NCBI GenBank assembly: GCA_964387645.1
Contig: CAYLYM010000002.1
Location: forward strand, 642-64,641
Origin: an uncultured Calditrichaceae bacterium
Lineage (GTDB): Bacteria > Calditrichota > Calditrichia > RBG-13-44-9
Direction of reading: 5' to 3'
DNA length: 64,000 nt
Both the position numbers and the translations under genes were made by a program. The notes beneath the pieces were generated by a model, which worked only from the letters and a program-made list of their open reading frames with translations, was not told the DNA's origin and did no database searches. Shown one piece after another: positions 1,738 to 13,185 of this stretch; within the stretch, counting starts at the first letter, position 1, and each line of letters starts with the position of its first letter.

Positions 1738-1790
1738 GAATGGGTTTTAAAGGCTTAAGAAGATGATTGAAAAAAATCAGAGGAATTTTT

Positions 1791-3044
1791 ATGAAAAAGC
1801 TTGGTAAATATTCTATCGGAATAGGAGACCGTTTTGCACATCAAGGAAAAGCTCAACTAAAGGCTATTATTCAGGCCAAAGAGGTCGGAGTAGAAATCAC
1901 ACCAGTGTGGAATAAATCCTACCGGGAACATAACATCGTAAAAAGTAATCCGAAGGATACCAGAGTTGAAGCAGATGAAGCTGTAAAAGCGCTTGGCTGG
2001 AAAGATGCCTATTTTGTTGATGCCGACCATGTGGGAATGAAAACAGTTGATTTGTTTATTGATTATAGTGATTTTTTCACGTTAGACGTGGCAGATTTTA
2101 TTGGAAAATCGGCAATTGATGATGACATCAATGCTTTTGTGGAAAGAAATAGAAAGTTTTTAGGAAATTTACAAATTCCTGGTATTTCAGAAGTATTTCA
2201 GATTACAGAAGAACAATTAAAGGCAGTTGCTGAGAAATTTCTTTTTGCCATTCAGGAGGCTGGACGCATCTATCGTCACATAGCTGGTAAAAAAGCAGAA
2301 AACTCTTTTATAGTGGAAGTTTCTATGGATGAAACAGATGAACCTCAAACACCGGTTGAGTTACTGTTTATTTTAGAAGCAATTGCAGCGGAAGGTATTC
2401 CTGCCCAAACTATTGCACCGAAGTTTACCGGTCGGTTTAATAAAGGAGTTGACTATGTGGGGGATGTGGAACAATTTTCTCGCGAATTTGAGCAGGACGT
2501 GGCGGTTATCAATTTTGCTGTTAAATCCTTTAGACTTCCTCCAGATTTAAAACTGAGTGTTCATTCTGGTAGCGATAAATTTGCTATCTATGGACCTATA
2601 AATCGCACGCTTAAGAAATTTAAAGCAGGACTTCATCTGAAAACAGCTGGTACAACCTGGTTAGAGGAATTAATTGGTCTAGCCGAAGCGGGAGGTGAGG
2701 GTTTAAAAATTGCCAAAGATGTCTATAGTGAGGCGTATCGCCGTTTTGATGAATTATGTGGCCCGTATGCTGCTGTAATTGATATTGATAAAGAACAACT
2801 CCCAACTCCAGAAACTGTAGAAACGTGGGATGGACAAACTTATGCCGATACCCTGCGTCATGATCAATCTTGTGATAAGTATAATCCGAATTTTCGTCAA
2901 CTTCTACATGTTGGATATAAGATAGCTGCCGAGATGGGAGATCGTTATCTCAGTGCTCTGAGAAAATATGAAGGGATCATAGCCAAAAACGTTACAGAAA
3001 ATATCTTTGAGCGTCACATCAAACCCGTTTTTATCAATCAATAA
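1791..3044 (+). CDS. uxaE: Tagaturonate/fructuronate epimerase UxaE
   Basis: Motifs SIGIGDRF, YFVDADH, EVSMDET, FTGRFNKGVDY, KLSVHSGSDKF, HLKTAGTTWLEE. Start moved from the TTG at 1767 to the ATG at 1791, which follows an AGAGGA SD. Confidence 0.9.
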   Translation: MKKLGKYSIGIGDRFAHQGKAQLKAIIQAKEVGVEITPVWNKSYREHNIVKSNPKDTRVEADEAVKALGWKDAYFVDADHVGMKTVDLFIDYSDFFTLDVADFIGKSAIDDDINAFVERNRKFLGNLQIPGISEVFQITEEQLKAVAEKFLFAIQEAGRIYRHIAGKKAENSFIVEVSMDETDEPQTPVELLFILEAIAAEGIPAQTIAPKFTGRFNKGVDYVGDVEQFSREFEQDVAVINFAVKSFRLPPDLKLSVHSGSDKFAIYGPINRTLKKFKAGLHLKTAGTTWLEELIGLAEAGGEGLKIAKDVYSEAYRRFDELCGPYAAVIDIDKEQLPTPETVETWDGQTYADTLRHDQSCDKYNPNFRQLLHVGYKIAAEMGDRYLSALRKYEGIIAKNVTENIFERHIKPVFINQ

Positions 3045-3065: not shown

Positions 3066-3362
3066 ATGGCCTTTATTCGAAGAAATTGGACACCTGAAGA
3101 GGCTGATGAGTGGCATAAAGAAGATTGGATTGCAATCATCCTATCTGTGATCTCTTATATTACTTTAACTATTGGTGTGGCCTTATCTTTCTTATTGCTT
3201 ACCGAAGGATTTATTATTCTTCTAATAGGCGTTATCGTCACATTACTCATGTATTGGGTTATTGATCCCAAGCTTAGAGTCATTTCTAACGAGTACGAAA
3301 AGAAACAAAAGGAATTCCTTGAACATATTGAAGAGATTCAAAGATGGGAGGTCAGATCATGA
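3066..3362 (+). CDS. Small two-TM membrane protein (98 aa), first of three small ORFs before the SSS transporter
   Basis: AAGGAG SD; two hydrophobic helices flanked by charged ends (WTPEEADEWHKEDW ... EYEKKQKEFL). Confidence 0.8.
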   Translation: MAFIRRNWTPEEADEWHKEDWIAIILSVISYITLTIGVALSFLLLTEGFIILLIGVIVTLLMYWVIDPKLRVISNEYEKKQKEFLEHIEEIQRWEVRS

Positions 3363-3645: not shown

Positions 3646-5583
3646 ATGATCACTTTTGAATTATTAGACTGGATATGGTTATTTCTTTTTATTGTTTTGA
3701 TGGTTGTTTTTGGATCCTATTTTTATCGTTTGGGTAAACGTTCAGAATCAGATTTTTTCTTAGCAGGTAGAGGATTGCCCTGGTGGTTGCCAGCTTCATC
3801 AGTTTATGCCACCCATACAGCTACAGATACACCTATTTGGGTTGCCGGTGTTGTTTATAAATATGGATTTGCTGGATTGTGGTATGCCTTTTTTGCGGCA
3901 TGGTGTGCTATTAGTGCTTTTGTGTCCACCAAAATTTTCCGACGTTCGTTAGCTTACAGCCAAGCGGAGTGGCAAAGCCTACGTTTTGGTGGTCTGGGAG
4001 CAGAGATGTTGCGAGGCTGGTTAGCTGGATGGCAGGTATTTATGAATATGTTTATCCTTGGTTGGGTAGGTATTGCTATGGGCAAGTTGTGTAACCTGCT
4101 GTTTGGATGGGATTTGTGGATTGGTCTGGTACTTTTTACCAGCATTGGAGCTATTTACGTGCTTCTTTCGGGTTATTGGGGAGTGGTGATGGCCGACTTT
4201 CAACAAGGGGTCATCGCCTTCTTGGTAATTGTTATTGTATCTATTTGGGGTGTTGTTGCGGCTGGCGGTCCCGATGCTATTGTGAATAAGCTCAAAAAAT
4301 ACAATAGCACCTGTGAATGGAAAATTCCAGATGATGTTCCCAATAATACTACTGGAATAGTCAGAATTACTGATTCTGAGACGGGTAAAGAATTTGCGCG
4401 ATCTTCCGGAACTTTTACCATTTTGAATAAAGAAGATGAACAGCAATTTAGAGCAACTGAGGAACGGGTAAAACAATTAGTAACTCAGGTTGAAAGTTCT
4501 TCAGCGGATTATCCCGAGGTCTTGTTTCCACGTGCAGGAGATGTGCTTTTAGCAAACCATGGTTATAATGTGGTTTGGACAGCAGGTAAAACCGGAAAAC
4601 GGGTGAATGTTGAGTATTCATTTGACAATGGTAAAACATGGTCTGCCATTGAATTGAATCATTTTGATGGTCAAATATGGCGAATTAATCCATTCAGCTT
4701 TACTGGTTTAACCAAGGGGCAGTTTCCTGTGGCATGGTTTATTACCATGATGATCATAGCTCTTATTGGCGGTTTTGGCATGGGAACCACTATTGATTGG
4801 TACACCGAAGCCCAGAGAATTCAGTCGGCCAAATCCGTTCGGGATGCTTCTTACAGTATCTGGGCTGGAACGGCTTTGGTGCTCATTCGTAATTCAATCT
4901 GGGCGGCAGCTATCATGGGCTTTTTTGTTTTATTTCCACATTTAGGCCAGAGCAGTGAATACGAAATGGGATGGTACATCGTAGGATTTCGATATCTACC
5001 TGTTGGAATGGTTGGATTCCTATTTGCAGGAATTCTGGCAATTCATTTATCCACTGTTTCGACTCAATTAAATTTAGGTGCAATGTATGCCACTCGCGAT
5101 TTTTATCATCATTATGTTAATCCCAAAGCTGACGAGAAAAAATTGGTATTAGTTGGACGTATATCCACTTTTATTATTTTAATCGGGTCTTTCATATTTG
5201 GAACAATTATTGGTGAAGAAATCACGGCATGGTTGATTTTTGCTCTCTGGATTATGGCTGCTGGTGTTTGGTTACCAAATATTCTACAGGTTATTTGGTG
5301 GCGTTTTAATGCCTGGGGTTCCTTAAGTGCATGGATTGCTAATCTGGGATTAAGTTGGTTGATTGTCTGGGTCTTACCCAGGTTTGGTGTCATCCCAGAA
5401 TTGCCAGATTATTTGCAATTCTGGATTCTTATTGTCTTGAATGCACTTATTTACATTCCTGTAACTTACTTAACAAAACCAGAAGATATGGACCATTTAG
5501 TCAAATTCTACGTTATGTCTCGTCCAATTGGTTTTTGGGGCCCAGTGAAGAAAGAAGCTATTCGCAGGGGATTGATTTCTTAA
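3646..5583 (+). CDS. Sodium:solute symporter (SSS) family transporter with an about 125 aa soluble insertion
   Basis: SDFFLAGRGLPWW, GYWGVVMADFQQG, AQRIQSAKS, GILAIHLSTVSTQLN and LVLVGRI motifs; many TM helices; hydrophilic insert at about 4300-4680. Confidence 0.9.
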   Translation: MITFELLDWIWLFLFIVLMVVFGSYFYRLGKRSESDFFLAGRGLPWWLPASSVYATHTATDTPIWVAGVVYKYGFAGLWYAFFAAWCAISAFVSTKIFRRSLAYSQAEWQSLRFGGLGAEMLRGWLAGWQVFMNMFILGWVGIAMGKLCNLLFGWDLWIGLVLFTSIGAIYVLLSGYWGVVMADFQQGVIAFLVIVIVSIWGVVAAGGPDAIVNKLKKYNSTCEWKIPDDVPNNTTGIVRITDSETGKEFARSSGTFTILNKEDEQQFRATEERVKQLVTQVESSSADYPEVLFPRAGDVLLANHGYNVVWTAGKTGKRVNVEYSFDNGKTWSAIELNHFDGQIWRINPFSFTGLTKGQFPVAWFITMMIIALIGGFGMGTTIDWYTEAQRIQSAKSVRDASYSIWAGTALVLIRNSIWAAAIMGFFVLFPHLGQSSEYEMGWYIVGFRYLPVGMVGFLFAGILAIHLSTVSTQLNLGAMYATRDFYHHYVNPKADEKKLVLVGRISTFIILIGSFIFGTIIGEEITAWLIFALWIMAAGVWLPNILQVIWWRFNAWGSLSAWIANLGLSWLIVWVLPRFGVIPELPDYLQFWILIVLNALIYIPVTYLTKPEDMDHLVKFYVMSRPIGFWGPVKKEAIRRGLIS

Positions 5584-5914: not shown

Positions 5915-6748
5915 ATGAATCAGGAAGAATTAACCAAGATGTATGATTTCACAGATCGAACAGTGGTAGTGACGGGAGGAACGGGAATTTTGGGGGGTGA
6001 AATAGCCTGTGCGCTGGTGGGCTGTGGAGCGAATGTAGCAATCATGGACCGAAATACTGAGTTACGGGAAGATATGAAAAAGAAGATTGAAGCGTCTGTT
6101 GGAAGGGCGATTGTGGTCTATGGTGATGTTTTAGACCGTGATGTATTAAATCAATCTTTTGAACGTATTCTGGAAGAATTTGGAAAAGTAGATATTTTGA
6201 TAAATGCCGCAGGGGGCAATCATCCCGATGCGACAACTTCTCCGGAAAAACCATTTTTTGATTTACCTTTGGAAGCTTTTCGTTTCACATCTGAGTTGAA
6301 TTTATTAGGAACTGTGCTGCCCAGTCAAATTTTTGGGAAACATATGGCTGAAAGAGGAGAGGGGGTCATCCTCAATGTATCTTCAATGAATGCCTTTAGA
6401 CCTCTTACGCGAATTCCGGCTTATTCGGCGGCTAAAGCGGCTGTAAGTAATTTTACTCAATGGTTGGCTGTGCATATGGCACAGGAATATTCTCCAAAAA
6501 TCAGGGTGAATGCCATTGCTCCAGGTTTCTTCTTAACCATGCAGAATAAGTTCTTGCTAATTGATGAGAAGACGGGTGAACTTACACCTCGAGGAAAAAG
6601 TATTATAGACCATACGCCGATGGGACGATTTGGTGATCCGGAAGATTTATTAGGCACTGTTTTATGGCTGATTTCTCCAGCCTCATCTTTTGTTACTGGA
6701 ATTGTAGTTCCCGTTGATGGCGGATTTTCTGCCTTTAGTGGTGTTTGA
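5915..6748 (+). CDS. uxuB: SDR-type D-mannonate oxidoreductase (fructuronate reductase)
   Basis: TGGTGILG, INAAGGNHPDATT, SSMNAFRPLTRIPAYSAAKAAVSNFTQWLAVHMA, typical of SDR-type UxuB; uronate gene context. Confidence 0.85.
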   Translation: MNQEELTKMYDFTDRTVVVTGGTGILGGEIACALVGCGANVAIMDRNTELREDMKKKIEASVGRAIVVYGDVLDRDVLNQSFERILEEFGKVDILINAAGGNHPDATTSPEKPFFDLPLEAFRFTSELNLLGTVLPSQIFGKHMAERGEGVILNVSSMNAFRPLTRIPAYSAAKAAVSNFTQWLAVHMAQEYSPKIRVNAIAPGFFLTMQNKFLLIDEKTGELTPRGKSIIDHTPMGRFGDPEDLLGTVLWLISPASSFVTGIVVPVDGGFSAFSGV

Positions 6749-6795
6749 AAAAGAAACGAATGAAAAATAAACAAAAAGAAAAGAGAGGAAGAGGG

Positions 6796-8814
6796 ATGAG
6801 CAAGTTAAAGTACACTCCTGAGTTGCGAAAATTGGCTGCCGATACGATTCGATTTCTATCAGCAGACGGTGTTCAAAAAGCTAATTCGGGCCATCCAGGA
6901 ATGCCTATGGGCATGGCTGATGTTGCTTTTTTATTGTGGACGCATTATTTAAAATTTAATCCCAAAGATCCCAGGTGGCCGAACCGGGATCGGTTTGTGC
7001 TTTCAGCCGGTCATGGTTCTATGTTGCTATATTCATTGCTTTATTTAAGCGGTTATGATGTCACCATGGAGGATCTCAGATCATTTCGGCAATGGGACAG
7101 CCGTACTCCCGGACATCCCGAGTACTGGTGTCTTCCCGGTGTCGAAACAACTACCGGTCCGCTTGGACAGGGCTTCGCTAATGGTGTTGGTATGGCTATT
7201 GCTGCAAAAATGACTGCGGAGCGTTTTAATACCGCTGATTTCAATCTTTTTGGTAACCATTACATTTATGCGATCGTTAGTGACGGTGATCTGATGGAAG
7301 GTGTGGCTTCGGAAGCGGCTTCAATTGCCGGTCACCTGAAACTTGGCAATCTGATTTATATTTATGATGATAATCAGATCACCATTGAAGGAAATACCGA
7401 TCTAACTTTTTCTGAAGATGTAGCCAAACGTTTCGAAGCCTATCATTGGCATACCATTACTGTGGATGCTTACGATCATCAAGCAGTAGTTGATGCCATC
7501 GAAGAAGGACGTCGGGAAACTGAAAAACCGACATTAATAATAGCCAAATCGCACATTGGATATGGTAGTCCAAATAAACAAGATACTGCAGGGGTGCATG
7601 GTGCCCCATTGGGTGAGGATGAGTTAAAAGCTACCAAACGTAATTTAGGTTGGCCGGAGGATGCGGAATTTTTTGTACCTGAAGAAGTATCCAAAATTTT
7701 TTCTGAACGGGTTGAGGAATTAAAACAAGAATATGAAAGCTGGCAGAAAGCTTTCAGCGGATGGAAGGAAAAGAATCCAGATTTAGCCAGTCAATGGGAA
7801 AATTTTCAAAATAAAACGGTTCCTGAAGATATCGAGAAGGAATTATTATCTGTATTACCGCAAGAACCCGATGCGACACGTAAATTATCAGGTAAAGTTA
7901 TTCAAAAGATTGCTGATTTAGTGCCCAGCTTTGTTGGTGGCTCAGCCGATTTGGCACCATCTACCAATACACTGATGAAAGCTTATGAATCCATTGCTCC
8001 AGAGAAATTCTCCGGGCGTAATTTCCACTTTGGTATTCGGGAACATGGAATGGGAGCCATTCTGAATGGCATTGCACTTTATGGTGGTTTTATACCTTTT
8101 GGTGCAACATTTTTAGTGTTTTCCGATTATATGCGTCCGCCTATCCGTCTGGCCGCCTTAATGGAACAACAAGTAATTTATGTTTTTACACACGATAGTA
8201 TTTTTATTGGTGAGGATGGACCAACCCACCAACCCGTGGAGCATTTTGCTGCCTTACGTGCTATACCTAATCTAACAGTTTTACGTCCAGCCGATGGCAC
8301 TGAGGTTGCCATGAGTTGGGCTTATGCTTTGAAAAACCGTAAAGGACCGACTGCTTTGCTATTGACCCGACAAAAAGTGCCTGTAATTGAACGAGGTGGT
8401 GATTTTGATCCGAGTCTTGTCCTGAAAGGTGGTTACATCGTATCCAATTGTCAAAAAGATACACCCGATGTTGTCCTGATTGGAACGGGATCAGAATTGG
8501 CTGTGGCTATCGAGGCACAAAAGATTTTGAAAGAGCATAACATTGATGCCCGGGTAGTTTCCATGCCTTCTGTTGAGCTGTTTAAACACCAGGATAAAAG
8601 ATACCGAGATTCAGTGATCCCCCCGCAGGGCAGTAGAGTTGTAGTAATAGAAGCAGGTGTTGGTTTTGGATGGAAAGATATCACTGGCTTGCCGGTTTTG
8701 ATGATTGGATTAGATCGTTTTGGTGCATCCGCACCTTATAAAGTGCTTGCAGAAAAGTTTGGTTTTACTGGCGAGCAGGTGGCAACCAAAGTTATAGAAT
8801 GGCTTAAAAAATAG
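6796..8814 (+). CDS. tkt: Transketolase
   Basis: SGHPGMPMG, RDRFVLSAGHGSM, TTGPLGQG, GDLMEG, HFGIREH, THDSIFIGEDGPTHQP. Start moved to the ATG at 6796 (GAGGG SD). Confidence 0.97.
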   Translation: MSKLKYTPELRKLAADTIRFLSADGVQKANSGHPGMPMGMADVAFLLWTHYLKFNPKDPRWPNRDRFVLSAGHGSMLLYSLLYLSGYDVTMEDLRSFRQWDSRTPGHPEYWCLPGVETTTGPLGQGFANGVGMAIAAKMTAERFNTADFNLFGNHYIYAIVSDGDLMEGVASEAASIAGHLKLGNLIYIYDDNQITIEGNTDLTFSEDVAKRFEAYHWHTITVDAYDHQAVVDAIEEGRRETEKPTLIIAKSHIGYGSPNKQDTAGVHGAPLGEDELKATKRNLGWPEDAEFFVPEEVSKIFSERVEELKQEYESWQKAFSGWKEKNPDLASQWENFQNKTVPEDIEKELLSVLPQEPDATRKLSGKVIQKIADLVPSFVGGSADLAPSTNTLMKAYESIAPEKFSGRNFHFGIREHGMGAILNGIALYGGFIPFGATFLVFSDYMRPPIRLAALMEQQVIYVFTHDSIFIGEDGPTHQPVEHFAALRAIPNLTVLRPADGTEVAMSWAYALKNRKGPTALLLTRQKVPVIERGGDFDPSLVLKGGYIVSNCQKDTPDVVLIGTGSELAVAIEAQKILKEHNIDARVVSMPSVELFKHQDKRYRDSVIPPQGSRVVVIEAGVGFGWKDITGLPVLMIGLDRFGASAPYKVLAEKFGFTGEQVATKVIEWLKK

Positions 8815-8872: not shown

Positions 8873-10327
8873 ATGGAAAAATACGATATTGGTCTAATAG
8901 GTCTGGCTGTAATGGGGGAAAATTTGGTATTAAATATGGAAAGGCACGGTTTTTCGGTAGCGGTTTATAATCGTACTGTAAGTAAAGTAGATGCTTTTAT
9001 TGAAGGACGTGCCAAAGGGAAAAATATAAAAGGATGCCACAGCATTGAGGAGTTGGTAGCCAGTTTGAAAAAGCCGCGCAAAATTATGCTTCTGGTGAAA
9101 GCTGGAAAACCTGTTGATGATTTTATTGAGCGTCTCATTCCGCATCTTGAGAAAGGTGACATCATTATTGATGGTGGAAACAGTTATTTCCATGATACCA
9201 TTCGACGGACAGAGTATGTGGAGAGCAAGGGATTATTATATATAGGCACTGGAGTGTCTGGTGGAGAAGAAGGTGCTTTAAATGGTCCTTCTCTCATGCC
9301 AGGTGGTTCACCGGAGGCTTGGCCGCATGTTGAGCCTATTTTTAAGAGCATTGCGGCAAAAGTGGCCGATGGTACCCCATGCTGTGAATGGGTGGGTAGC
9401 AATGGTGCTGGACATTTTGTTAAAATGGTGCATAATGGCATAGAATATGGCGATATGCAAATGATCTGCGAAGCGTACTGGATCATGAAAAATGCACTGG
9501 GTTTGACGCCAGAAGAAATGCAACCCATATTCACTGAATGGAATAAAGGTGAATTAAATAGTTATTTGATCGAGATTACCGCAGATATCATGGGAAAGAA
9601 AGATGATGAGACCGGAAAATCCATGCTCGATGTTATTCTTGATACTGCTGGACAGAAAGGAACTGGCAAATGGACTAGTCTGGAGGCGCTTAATCTGGGT
9701 GTTCCTGCACCTACAGTAGTGGAAGCTGTCTTCGCTCGTGCTTTAAGTGCTATCAAAGAAGAACGGGTAGAGGCCTCGAAAATTTTGCATGGGCCTAACA
9801 CAAAATTCGAAGGCGATAAAGAAGAATTCATCGAGATGATCCGCAAAGCACTTTATGCGGCCAAGATATGCTCATACGCCCAGGGATTTCAGATCATGCG
9901 AACTGCTTCTAAAGAATACAATTGGACTCTTAAATTTGGTGATATTGCTTTGATGTGGCGAGGCGGTTGTATCATCAGAGCTCAATTCCTGGATAAAATT
10001 AAAGCAGCATTTGATAAAAATCCTGATTTACCCAACTTGCTTTTAGATGATTATTTCAGAACTGCTATTGAAACGAATCAGGATGCCTGGCGAAAGGTAG
10101 TGGCGAAAGCTGTAGAGTTGGGAATCCCGGTGCCAGCCTTTAGTAGTGCATTAGCCTATTATGATGGATATCGCAGTGAGAGATTACCAGCCAATCTATT
10201 GCAGGCTCAGCGCGATTATTTCGGTGCTCACACTTATGAACGCGTGGATAAGCCGCGCGGCCAATTTTTCCATACTAATTGGACGGGACGTGGTGGAACC
10301 ACTTCTTCTACTACTTATAATGTCTAG
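8873..10327 (+). CDS. gnd: 6-phosphogluconate dehydrogenase, decarboxylating
   Basis: [62 protein letters not shown]. Confidence 0.98.
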
Positions 10328-10430: not shown

Positions 10431-11696
10431 ATGTTAATTGGAAAAGGCGCAAAAGATGTCGTTCTTAAAGAAGAGGAAGTTTTCAACCTGTGCGATCAGG
10501 CTTTTTCTCAAAAAGACCTTGATGGGAAAAAATTACTCGTGATTATCCCGGATCATTCTCGAACTGCTCCAATTGATATGATGTTCCGCCTGGTTTATCA
10601 ATTGCTGGCAGATCGGGTTCAACTTTTAGATTTCTTAATTGCTCTGGGAACACATCCCCCCATGAGCGATGAAATGATAAATAAGCGAGTTGGTATTACC
10701 CAGGAAGACCGTGTAACTAAATATCAAAAAGCCCGTTTCTTCAACCATTCTTGGAACGATCCTAATCAACTTCGATTAGCTGGTACGATCACCGAAAAAG
10801 AAGTTGAAGAGATTTCGGAAGGATTGATGCGAGAAGAAGTGGAAGTGACAGTTAACAAAATGATTTACAACTACGATCTGCTGTTGATAATAGGTCCTAC
10901 ATTTCCTCATGAAGTGGTTGGATTCTCTGGTGGAAACAAATATCTTTTTCCAGGAATTGCTGGACAGAAAATAATCGACATGTTTCACTGGTTGGGAGCG
11001 CTTATTACTAGTCCTAGGATCATTGGTACTAAGTATACTCCGGTTAGAAGAGTGGTCGATCGTGCAGCTCAATTTTTACCTGTAGAACGTATGTGTATCA
11101 GTCTGGTGGTCAAAGGTTATGATCTTGCCGGTTTATATATTGGCACACCAGAAGAAGCTTGGGATGCTGCTGCCGATCTGTCCAATCAGCTACACATCAT
11201 CTACAAAGAAAAACCTTTTCATACTGTTTTATCTCGCGCTCCGGAAATGTATGATGATTTATGGACGGGTGGAAAATGTATGTACAAATTAGAACCGGTT
11301 GTAGCGGATGGCGGAGAACTTATCATTTATGCACCGCATATTAAGGAAATATCTGTGACTCATGGAAAAATTATTGAAAAAATTGGTTACCATGTACGCG
11401 ATTATTTCTTAAAGCAAATGGATAAATTCAAAGACATTCCAGGTGGAGTAATGGCGCATTCAACACATGTGCGCGGTATTGGTACTTATGAGAATGGCGT
11501 GGAAAAACCGAGAATTAAAGTAACATTAGCAACTCAAATTCCGGAAGAAGTTTGTCAAAAAATCAACCTTGGTTATCGTGATCCAAGAACAATCAATATT
11601 GCTGATTTTGAGAATAGAGAGGAAGAAGGTATTCTTTATGTTCCCAAAGCTGGAGAAATGCTTTATCGTTTAAAAGACGATCCTTTTTGCAAATAA
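10431..11696 (+). CDS. LarA/DUF2088-family (nickel-pincer-dependent) 2-hydroxy-acid epimerase; candidate D-mannonate/D-gluconate 2-epimerase
   Basis: IIPDHSRT, IALGTHPPM, NHSW, GPTFPHEVVGFSGGNKYLFPG (equivalent to LarA PH..AGFSGGRK with the cofactor Lys kept). Substrate inferred from context only. Confidence 0.75.
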   Translation: MLIGKGAKDVVLKEEEVFNLCDQAFSQKDLDGKKLLVIIPDHSRTAPIDMMFRLVYQLLADRVQLLDFLIALGTHPPMSDEMINKRVGITQEDRVTKYQKARFFNHSWNDPNQLRLAGTITEKEVEEISEGLMREEVEVTVNKMIYNYDLLLIIGPTFPHEVVGFSGGNKYLFPGIAGQKIIDMFHWLGALITSPRIIGTKYTPVRRVVDRAAQFLPVERMCISLVVKGYDLAGLYIGTPEEAWDAAADLSNQLHIIYKEKPFHTVLSRAPEMYDDLWTGGKCMYKLEPVVADGGELIIYAPHIKEISVTHGKIIEKIGYHVRDYFLKQMDKFKDIPGGVMAHSTHVRGIGTYENGVEKPRIKVTLATQIPEEVCQKINLGYRDPRTINIADFENREEEGILYVPKAGEMLYRLKDDPFCK

Positions 11697-11892: not shown

Positions 11893-13185
11893 ATGGCACA
11901 GAATAAAAATGTTGTTGTTGCCCAATCTGGTGGGCCTTCGCCGGTTATAAATAATTCCTTACGTGGAATTATTGAAACCTGCAAGATGTTTCCAGACAAA
12001 TTTGCTACCATTTATGGCGGTTATCATGGGGTTGAAGGAATTTTAAAGGAAGAACTACTTGATTTATCTGCTCAACCGGAAGAAGAGATTTCTCTTTTAC
12101 GTACAACCCCGGCAGCGGGGTCAATCGGTACTTGCCGTTACAAATTGAGAGAACATCAACAGGAAGATTTCGAACGCGTCATCGAAGTATTTAAAGCACA
12201 TAATGTGGGGTACTTTTTCTACATAGGGGGCAACGACTCGATGGACACCGCCAATAAAGTAGCAAAGTTAGCTCATAAAAGAGGATTAGATCTTGTTGCT
12301 GTGGGTGTGGCAAAGACCATCGATAATGATGTTGGCGATTCTGAATTCAAATTAATCGATCATACACCGGGTTACGGAAGTGTGGCACGCTATTGGGCAC
12401 ATATTATTCAAAATGCCAATGAAGAAAATATGGGATCATCGCCGTCGGATCCTGTATTAGTGATTCAAATGATGGGTCGGAAGATCGGATTTATTCCAGC
12501 GGCCGCACGATTAGCTGATCCCAAACGTGAAATGCCGCTACAAATTTATATGCCAGAATCAAATGTATCTATGGAGGAGTTGGTAGACAATGTAAATGAT
12601 GAACTAAAAAGAAGCGGTCGGGTAATTGTTTGTATCAGTGAAGGGTTTGATGTAGGAGATGTTGGCGCAGTAAAAGATGCTTTCGGCCATACGCAATTCA
12701 GTGCCAGCAAATTGACCGTGGCTCAGATTGTAGTGAATCACTTGAATAGTGTTGGATTAAAAGCCCGTGGTGCAGCTCGAGGCCAGGTACCTGGCACTGA
12801 CCAGAGGGATACCATGATATATGCTTCTACAGTAGATTTAGACGAAGCATACAAAATCGGACAAAATGCAGTTGTTATTGCCATAGAAAGTGGCTCTGGA
12901 TATATGTCTACTTTGAAAAGACGTCCTGGAATTATATACAATGTGGACTATGATAAAGTACCTCTGGAATTGGTGGCCAACTCAGAACGTGAATTTCCAA
13001 AAGAATGGATTGCACCAAACCGGATTGATGTAACAGATGATTTTGTGCGGTATGCTCGGCCCTTGATTGGAGAGGATTGGGTGAGTGTTCCTATTATTAA
13101 TGGTCGGCAGAGATTTACCCGTTTCAAGAAAATTTTTGCTGAGAAAAAACTACCACAATATGTGCCCCAGGCTTATCGATCTTGA
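11893..13185 (+). CDS. pfp: Phosphofructokinase family, probably PPi-dependent
   Basis: AQSGGPSPVIN, GGNDSMDT (Asp in GGxD indicates the PPi type), KTIDND, MGR motifs. Confidence 0.8.
   Translation: MAQNKNVVVAQSGGPSPVINNSLRGIIETCKMFPDKFATIYGGYHGVEGILKEELLDLSAQPEEEISLLRTTPAAGSIGTCRYKLREHQQEDFERVIEVFKAHNVGYFFYIGGNDSMDTANKVAKLAHKRGLDLVAVGVAKTIDNDVGDSEFKLIDHTPGYGSVARYWAHIIQNANEENMGSSPSDPVLVIQMMGRKIGFIPAAARLADPKREMPLQIYMPESNVSMEELVDNVNDELKRSGRVIVCISEGFDVGDVGAVKDAFGHTQFSASKLTVAQIVVNHLNSVGLKARGAARGQVPGTDQRDTMIYASTVDLDEAYKIGQNAVVIAIESGSGYMSTLKRRPGIIYNVDYDKVPLELVANSEREFPKEWIAPNRIDVTDDFVRYARPLIGEDWVSVPIINGRQRFTRFKKIFAEKKLPQYVPQAYRS

Follow-up and report, generated by a model that had tools for sequence, protein, structure and literature searches.

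The 64,000-nucleotide stretch analyzed here (the window) comes from an uncultured Calditrichaceae bacterium (assembly GCA_964387645.1, contig CAYLYM010000002.1, positions 642 to 64,641 of the forward strand). It carries on its + strand a transporter gene (3646..5583) with an inserted domain of approximately 122 residues (N220-G342; 4303..4671, +), very probably a circularly permuted Asp-box beta-sandwich of the Ig/Fn3-like type, that is missing from insert-free loci. The 645-residue open reading frame (ORF) belongs to the sodium:solute symporter (SSS) family, scoring 94.1 bits against Pfam SSF (PF00474), for which the cutoff is 22.8 bits. Against TIGR00813 it scores 110 bits, which is below that model's own cutoff of 184 bits, and no equivalog model is reached, indicating that the protein represents a divergent, unnamed SSS subfamily. 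More than 1200 homologues were found, for which the precomputed Pfam column lists PF00474 only and the names given are "sodium:solute symporter"; no source annotation seen among these search results marks the insert. The PF00474 match falls into two stretches, with residues 37-222 aligning to profile positions 1-185 and the remainder picking up after approximately residue 350. The TIGR00813 match is interrupted at the same place, and an insert-free orthologue matches this model in one unbroken stretch.

The first part of the host protein (residues 1-219; 3646..4302, +) comprises transmembrane segments (TM) 1 to 6 and the start of the loop that follows (GGPDAIVNKLKKY). It covers SSF positions 1-185, and its loop motif AAGGPxxIVxKLxxxG is common to insert-free orthologues. 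The second part (residues 343-645; 4672..5583, +) opens with the loop motif QxWRxNPFxFTG, which stands directly after "KLxxxG" in insert-free orthologues, and runs from TM7 to the C-terminus, where the C-terminal SSS matches of the TIGR00813 search are located. Six hydrophobic segments lie upstream of the insert. Lysines and arginines, as read from the sequence, number four in the loop after TM1 (RLGKRSESDFFLAGRG) and four in the loop after TM3 (RRSLAYSQAEWQSLRFGGLGAEMLR), against one in the loop after TM2 and none in the loop after TM4. SSS proteins have a LeuT-type fold of 13-14 TM helices and their N-terminus outside. Given this topology, with which the positively charged loops after TM1 and TM3 agree, the TM6-TM7 loop, located between core TM5 and TM6 in LeuT-fold numbering, is expected to be periplasmic. 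A periplasmic insert fits the parent domain described below, which is known only from secreted proteins.

Alignment with insert-free orthologues defines the limits of the insert precisely. In these orthologues AAGGPxxIVxKLxxxG is followed without a gap by QSWRLNPFxFTG, and in the window protein N220 to G342 stand between the two motifs. A first-pass annotation, made from the sequence alone, had proposed an Ig-like domain inserted into a loop of the transporter at 4300-4680. The loop insertion is borne out by the direct abutment of both flanks in the orthologues and the location stands, but the exact limits do not, and are redrawn here to N220..G342 (4303..4671); GGPDAIVNKLKKY and QIWRINPFSFTG on either side belong to the host loop and lie outside the inserted domain. 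The two peptides and the charged linker on which that annotation was built are all found in the + strand ORF 3646..5583: NSTCEWKIPDDVPNNTTGIVRITDSETGKEFARSSGTFTIL corresponds to residues 220-260 (4303..4425), YPEVLFPRAGDVLLANHGYNVVWTAGKTGKRVNVEYSFDNGKTWSAI corresponds to residues 289-335, and a charged segment of about 29 residues separates them. The host motif GQxWRxNP (residues 342-349; 4669..4692) looks like the strand GSYSWTVP of the parent repeat, and profile alignments of the insert overrun into the host. Judged by the insert-free orthologues, this likeness is coincidental and a trap for the setting of domain boundaries, although the motif could have supplied microhomology at the capture step considered below. 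We also entertained the idea that "DGQIWRINP" after the Asp-box is a leftover duplicate of the "CEWKIP" strand, and rejected it because insert-free orthologues have "GQSWRLNPF" as host sequence.

A scan of species-representative genomes yielded 80 loci. Thirty of these (L001-L030) carry the insert at an identical point in proteins of approximately 620-660 residues where complete, and represent Neomarinimicrobiota/Marinimicrobia, KSB1, Calditrichota, Aminicenantes, Acidobacteria and Fodinibius roseus DSM 21986 (L025), a cultured organism. Across the carrier phyla and Fodinibius the inserts are 42-61% identical, with invariant core residues. Another 46 loci (L034-L080) are insert-free, with orthologues of 521-542 residues where complete and a core identity of 70-77%, and belong to Fidelibacterota, Caldithrix, Gemmatimonadota, Acidobacteriota, Aminicenantes, Ignavibacteriales, Chlorobiota and others. 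Two Rhodothermaceae orthologues of 582-589 residues (L031, 6001..7719; L033, 6001..7722) have an apparently unrelated insert of approximately 60 residues at the same loop position, suggesting that the site tolerates insertions and is a hotspot for them. Long matches in a Neomarinimicrobiota single-cell genome (L037, 5209..8526) and a Fidelibacterota metagenome-assembled genome (L044, 5344..8631) were considered as larger inserts and rejected, since each consists of two tandem insert-free paralogues, followed by a gene for a 98-residue protein. One further Fidelibacterota genome has two transporter copies at distant sites (L039, L048).

In order to identify relatives of the insert, we searched 1.8 billion representatives with HMMER using the insert alone as query. 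This recovered 1099 proteins at E<=1e-3. The list is headed by tandem-repeat proteins, 1-6 thousand residues long, in each of which as many as 45 stretches match; the best of these almost always covers insert positions 83-132 only. The best 150 matches include no transporter of approximately 645 residues, only a 138-residue fragment (P0190). The 50%-identity cluster of the transporter family may have an insert-free or divergent representative, so that carrier counts from this library would be misleading. The smaller secreted repeat proteins that we tested score above threshold for Pfam Kre9_KNH (PF10342), and two of these, P0235 and P0220, have sorting domains of the type IX secretion system (T9SS) at their end. 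The consensus of 400 repeats from the giant secreted proteins is ITVTSPNGGETLQAGSTQNITWTSSVSNVKIEYSTDNGSTWTTIASSVEANSGSYSWTVPNVSSSQCLVRVSDASNSSISDVSDAVFTI, and the consensus that the first-pass annotation had put forward proves to be this real one (ITVTSPNGGE..ITW..VKIEYSTDNGSTWTTI..GSYSWTVP..VRISD..FTI). The insert contains a single copy of the Asp-box (BNR) hairpin, YSFDNGKTWS (residues 324-333; 4615..4644, +; Pfam BNR PF02012, E 0.002-0.011), in which YSFDNGKTW at residues 324-332 shows the single S-x-D-x-G-x-T-W pattern of a Kre9/KNH-like domain.

The order of the two halves sets the insert apart from this family. A profile of the canonical repeat matches the window protein twice, with profile positions 48-96 aligning to residues 212-262 (19.8 bits) and positions 5-52 aligning to residues 290-339 (33 bits), and the same arrangement is found in 120/120 homologues. 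A hidden Markov model of the first canonical half, half A, scores 38.5 bits over residues 291-336. The collinear order, SPNGGE through the Asp-box (half A) and then W.VP..VRI.D..F.I (half B), is thus reversed throughout, and the insert is therefore a permuted derivative and no standard Kre9/KNH member. According to the profile matches, its first part (residues 220-260; 4303..4425, +) is the C-terminal half of the canonical repeat (..W.VP..VRI.D..F.I), with four predicted strands, and its second part (residues 290-342; 4513..4671, +) is the N-terminal half (I.V.SPNGGE..I.W..V.IEYS.D.G.TW..I), with five. Between them, a charged linker (residues 261-289; 4426..4512, +) joins the old C-terminus to the old N-terminus and includes a 17-residue helix that AlphaFold2 (AF2) predicts at insert positions 57-73.

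Swapped halves were the central claim of the first-pass annotation, and comparison of profiles in native and re-ordered form agrees with it. When the native insert family was compared with the canonical repeat in hhalign, two separate alignments in reversed order were obtained (E 2e-14 and 3.2e-8), whereas the re-ordered insert gave one end-to-end alignment of 89 columns (Prob 99.6%, E 7.8e-24). A second hhalign comparison gave 99.4%, E 7.6e-22 and 91 columns for the re-ordered insert, whereas in native order only the C-half aligned. Taken one at a time, the N-half of the insert matches parent half B (97.5%, E 8.7e-12) and the C-half matches parent half A (99.1%, E 6e-19); the crossed pairs, each half against the wrong half, served as negative controls and gave 15.9% and 0.2%.

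A swapped order has meaning only relative to the order in the parent, and two ways of establishing the latter were abandoned. The phase of the parent cannot be read from tandem arrays alone, as profiles joined in either order score equally in tight arrays, and a count of orphan halves was confounded by the weak sensitivity of the insert-derived N-half profile. We replaced these with two half-profiles built from canonical repeats, of equal sensitivity (2727 and 2611 matches), and read them at the ends of 149 proteins. The first half is A in 142/149 proteins. Where only 10-60 residues precede the first half, placing it right after the signal peptide, it is A in 81/83; of the two deviating proteins, one is a truncated ORF and the other, P0190, is a fragmentary insert-bearing transporter. 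At the opposite end, B comes last in 115/149, and in several of the others the final half reaches the C-terminus or stops a few residues short of it, consistent with truncation. In addition, the canonical profile aligns collinearly and in the same register with the Fn3-like domain of Clostridium thermocellum (PDB 3mpc; positions 15-58 to chain 17-60, E 6e-4), a weak and partial match that supports both the parent order and an Fn3-like fold. Therefore, the parent order is A then B, and that of the insert is B-linker-A. The insert begins at the strand after the parent's Asp-box hairpin strand (..TW..I....N.G / S.Y.W.VP..) and ends just before that same strand. The cut consequently falls in a loop between two consecutive parent strands, and because a single short host loop has to receive the insert at either end, the new termini should be adjacent, as had been anticipated. 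At the level of sequence, these comparisons demonstrate that both halves are homologous to the parent repeat, that they stand in the reverse of the parent order, itself defined independently, and that the insertion point is exact.

Direct comparison with Pfam is less decisive. The native insert scores 14.2 bits against PF10342, over profile positions 46-94 of 94 only, and falls short of the gathering score of 24.6 bits; the re-ordered insert scores 14.8-15.2 bits over positions 2-94 of 94, also sub-threshold but in a register that agrees with the permutation. Therefore, homology of the insert to the Kre9/KNH repeat rests on profile-profile matches to bacterial repeats that themselves pass PF10342. 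Counts of individual members were rejected as a test of order, since 10/37 match Kre9_KNH in native order and 9/37 when re-ordered, and only the matched coordinates separate the two. When PDB sequences were searched with the insert in native or re-ordered form, or with the canonical profile, only Asp-box fragments and the weak match to 3mpc were obtained. Asp-boxes occur in several unrelated folds (PMC2716378), and with single-sequence Pfam matches below threshold it could be argued that the likeness is convergent, the insert being an unrelated beta-rich segment with a chance Asp-box. Such convergence is effectively refuted by the finding that each half matches the correct half of the repeat over its full length and not the wrong half, with combined E values of 1e-22 to 1e-24 across 89-91 columns, and by the insert-alone search, whose listed top matches are mostly tandem-repeat proteins.

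The linker differs markedly from its counterpart in the parent arrays. In 2488 canonical junctions, a median of 4 residues (5-95%: 2-8) separates B from the A that follows, whereas the same distance in 120 insert-bearing transporters is 27-35 residues with a median of 30, making the linker between the old termini approximately 26 residues longer. Four residues would be too short for neighbouring half-repeats to fold together, but 30 residues could span an Fn3-like sandwich. Structure prediction with AF2 was performed on the full-length protein (44 sequences) and on the insert alone in a 148-residue construct (37 sequences). Both runs returned the same elements, four strands, a helix and five strands, with a predicted local distance difference test (pLDDT) of 81-95 in both halves. 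The isolated construct reached a predicted template modelling score (pTM) of 0.76, a value that would be hard to reach unless the halves were confidently placed relative to each other. The single sandwich on which the earlier proposal depended is therefore predicted as one compact domain, in which the halves would fold back on each other and the linker helix would run the length of the domain. Foldseek, which aligns sequentially, returned nothing significant for the insert model in the PDB (best E 0.18, with a weak likeness to Ig V-type domains at template modelling scores of 0.34-0.45) or in BFVD (best E 0.058), and so gave no collinear match to a known family in either database. Such an empty result is what a sandwich of non-standard connectivity would give, and 3mpc is absent among the top 50 listed Foldseek matches, as expected if connectivity differs.

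A permuted sequence need not fold within one chain. Two half-domains on a long helical linker could in principle open and complete the sandwich between protomers, in which case the insert would be an oligomerisation device in a domain-swapped dimer or oligomer, and Asp-boxes of Ig-like sandwiches often support domain-domain or dimer contacts (PMC2716378). We consider this improbable, given that the AF2 monomer is a confident, compact unit (the pTM above), that the linker is held at 27-35 residues, long enough for fold-back within one chain, and that a single short host loop has to take up the insert at both ends.

Conservation across 28 species-level carriers was computed along the insert. The most conserved parts are the N-terminal junction with the first strand (NSTCEWK.P, 0.86) and the C-terminal junction (0.79), on par with the host loop (0.76-0.80). 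Variability is greatest in the loop that follows the first strand (0.27) and in the linker (0.36). In the junction motif N-S-T-C (residues 220-223), N220 and S221 are invariant among carriers and T222 and C223 are at least 90% conserved; the insert has no second conserved cysteine, so that NSTC combines a lone periplasmic cysteine with an N-x-T sequon. The low values of 0.27-0.36, together with the permissiveness of a site at which the Rhodothermaceae proteins L031 and L033 hold an unrelated insert of about 60 residues, are what would be put forward for regarding the insert as the decayed remnant of two adjacent half-lost repeats, a tolerated spacer without fold or function. This is still less probable than assembly between protomers, because core residues of both halves (W225, P228, F257, L293, P295, W311 and W332) are invariant or nearly so across phyla, the insert does not vary in length, AF2 predicts both halves with high confidence, and conservation of the insert peaks at the junction motifs NSTC and NH.DG.

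Given these results, the insert is best explained, with high though incomplete confidence, as a circular permutant of an Asp-box Ig/Fn3-like repeat of approximately 90 residues and of Kre9/KNH type, located in the periplasmic TM6-TM7 loop of a divergent SSS transporter. Several points weigh against this explanation or parts of it. Contact between the halves and their parent-like three-dimensional arrangement are predictions drawn from pTM and pLDDT only, the insert alignment supplied to AF2 was shallow at 37 sequences, and in the full-length run the transmembrane core was modelled with pLDDT <50. Every Pfam Kre9_KNH match of the insert is under the gathering score. Any assignment of loops as proximal or distal to the membrane assumes the standard Fn3-like strand order. 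Besides the 98-residue partner described below, no neighbouring gene is conserved across the 80 related loci. Finally, a rough neighbour-joining tree of the core places most carriers in one clade nested among insert-free sequences, but L024 and L025+L030 fall outside this main carrier clade, and because the tree splits the carriers a single gain, transfer and losses are indistinguishable from it. Even so, neither the site nor the permutation differs among the carriers, and for this reason a single origin with later transfer or loss appears likely.

How such a permutant may have arisen is suggested by its parent, a repeat that forms long tandem arrays in T9SS-secreted giant proteins abundant in the same bacterial superphylum. 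Any one-repeat window begun mid-repeat in a tandem array already encodes the permutant. Hence, the simplest origin would be capture of a window one repeat long, consisting of the second half of repeat n and the first half of repeat n+1, after which the linker would have been lengthened. With the new termini in the former loop after the Asp-box hairpin strand, both ends could plug into one short host loop. No intermediate form between the parent repeat and the insert was found.

Upstream of the transporter gene lies the gene for a small membrane protein of 98 residues (3066..3362, +; MAxIRRxWTPxxADEWxxEDW..), which matches no Pfam or NCBIfam family. By tblastn this gene adjoins the transporter in 75/80 loci, with or without the insert, and the protein is probably an obligate small subunit of the transporter. 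It is located upstream in most insert-bearing loci and directly downstream in most insert-free loci, for example at 8563..8859 in L037 and 8686..8982 in L044. The window further encodes a UxaE-like epimerase (1767..3044), a short-chain dehydrogenase/reductase (5915..6748), a transketolase (6745..8814), a 6-phosphogluconate dehydrogenase (8873..10327), a LarA-N-domain protein (10431..11696) and a phosphofructokinase-family protein (11893..13185), a set of neighbours that weakly suggests a sugar or sugar acid as the cargo of the transporter. Glycoside hydrolase (GH) genes, a further hint at sugars, occur near some of the transporters. GH92 is found at 7/30 insert-bearing loci, GH2 of beta-mannosidase type at 4 and GH3 at 5; in the fetched flanks of insert-free transporters GH92 and GH2 occur at most once each and GH3 not at all (examples of GH genes are L014 2467..5418, L068 9316..11895 and L011 7969..10542). 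All ORFs of at least 250 residues between 13 and 64 kb, and all large ORFs in the first 14 kb, are on the + strand, a very strong bias over 64 kb. The G+C content of the window is 39%, a search of the window against Rfam found nothing, and promoter and terminator scans of it remained at background level.

What the insert does can be addressed only tentatively. If strand order is Fn3-like, the conserved elements would cluster at the membrane-proximal pole, and the conservation pattern points to a membrane-proximal base rather than a distal tip. The preferred possibility, at well under even confidence and drawn from sequence conservation, is that the insert forms a rigidly mounted cap or docking platform in the periplasm, over the extracellular face at the mouth of the transporter, where it would shape or gate the outward vestibule or use its base and Asp-box to bind a periplasmic partner. 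A floppy distal ligand trap is disfavoured because conservation peaks at the junctions and reaches its minimum in the linker and in the loop behind the first strand, which would be distal in an Fn3-like topology. The first-pass annotation had tentatively suggested substrate capture or partner docking, a speculative proposal, and it is doubtful that the permuted sandwich goes beyond a structural cap to be a built-in ligand- or partner-binding receptor module of the periplasm. A module of this kind would play a role like that of the separate binding proteins of TRAP and ABC transporters, or dock periplasmic glycosidases or outer-membrane uptake machinery, and might act together with the conserved 98-residue partner. 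Were it real, Marinimicrobia, KSB1 and Calditrichota would possess a functionally new class of secondary transporter.

Whatever its function, the insert bears on a general problem of domain insertion. The ends of an Ig/Fn3-like domain lie at opposite poles, so that such a domain is ill suited to insertion in a short loop. In this transporter the difficulty appears to have been overcome by a cut in a parent loop and bridging of the old ends by a long helical linker, with the tandem array offering a ready-made permuted segment. Parent family, insertion site and insert-free relatives are all identifiable, providing protein evolution with a clean, datable natural example that is also of value for engineering domain insertions into membrane proteins. 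In addition, the locus flags a widespread, uncharacterised SSS subfamily with a 98-residue partner in abundant uncultured lineages, some members of which have acquired a periplasmic domain. Circular permutation and domain insertion are known phenomena, as are extracellular elaborations of LeuT-fold transporters, but our literature searches returned no description of the combination seen here, in which a bacterial SSS transporter contains a permuted Asp-box repeat of Ig/Fn3-like type.

Among known systems, the closest to the insert are the Kre9/KNH-type tandem Asp-box repeats (PF10342) of the T9SS-secreted giants, with which it shares the family motifs SPNGGE, I.W, V.IEYS.D.G.TW..I, Y.W.VP, VRI.D and F.I, one Asp-box, a length of about 90 residues and an extracytoplasmic location. 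Unlike these repeats, the insert has a circularly permuted strand order, a helical linker of 27-35 residues in place of an inter-repeat linker of 2-8, and junction motifs of its own (NSTC, LFP and NH.DG), and it is present as a single copy inside a membrane protein, whereas in the giants up to 45 copies follow one another N-to-C. Reelin subrepeat B (PF21471) and the C-terminal Ig-like domains of chitobiase and sulfite oxidase likewise have a single surface Asp-box hairpin in a two-sheet sandwich, which in these domains supports contacts between domains (PMC2716378), and give weak profile matches. However, they align at the Asp-box region only and their topology is collinear, with no evidence of common descent past the motif.

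LeuT-fold transporters are known to have extracellular "lid" elaborations, such as the extended extracellular loops of eukaryotic SGLTs. These resemble the insert in placing extra structure on loops on the outward side of the same fold, but they are loop extensions with disulfides, whereas the insert would be an imported, autonomous beta-sandwich. Natural circular permutants produced by duplication and truncation include the type I and type II topologies of C2 domains, swaposin and DNA methyltransferases. In permutants that derive from tandem copies, a one-repeat window begun mid-repeat is already permuted, and the tandem-array parent of the insert fits this route. The insert differs from these examples in being also a domain insertion into a polytopic membrane protein, in which permutation would solve the problem posed by the distance between the termini of an Ig/Fn3-like domain.

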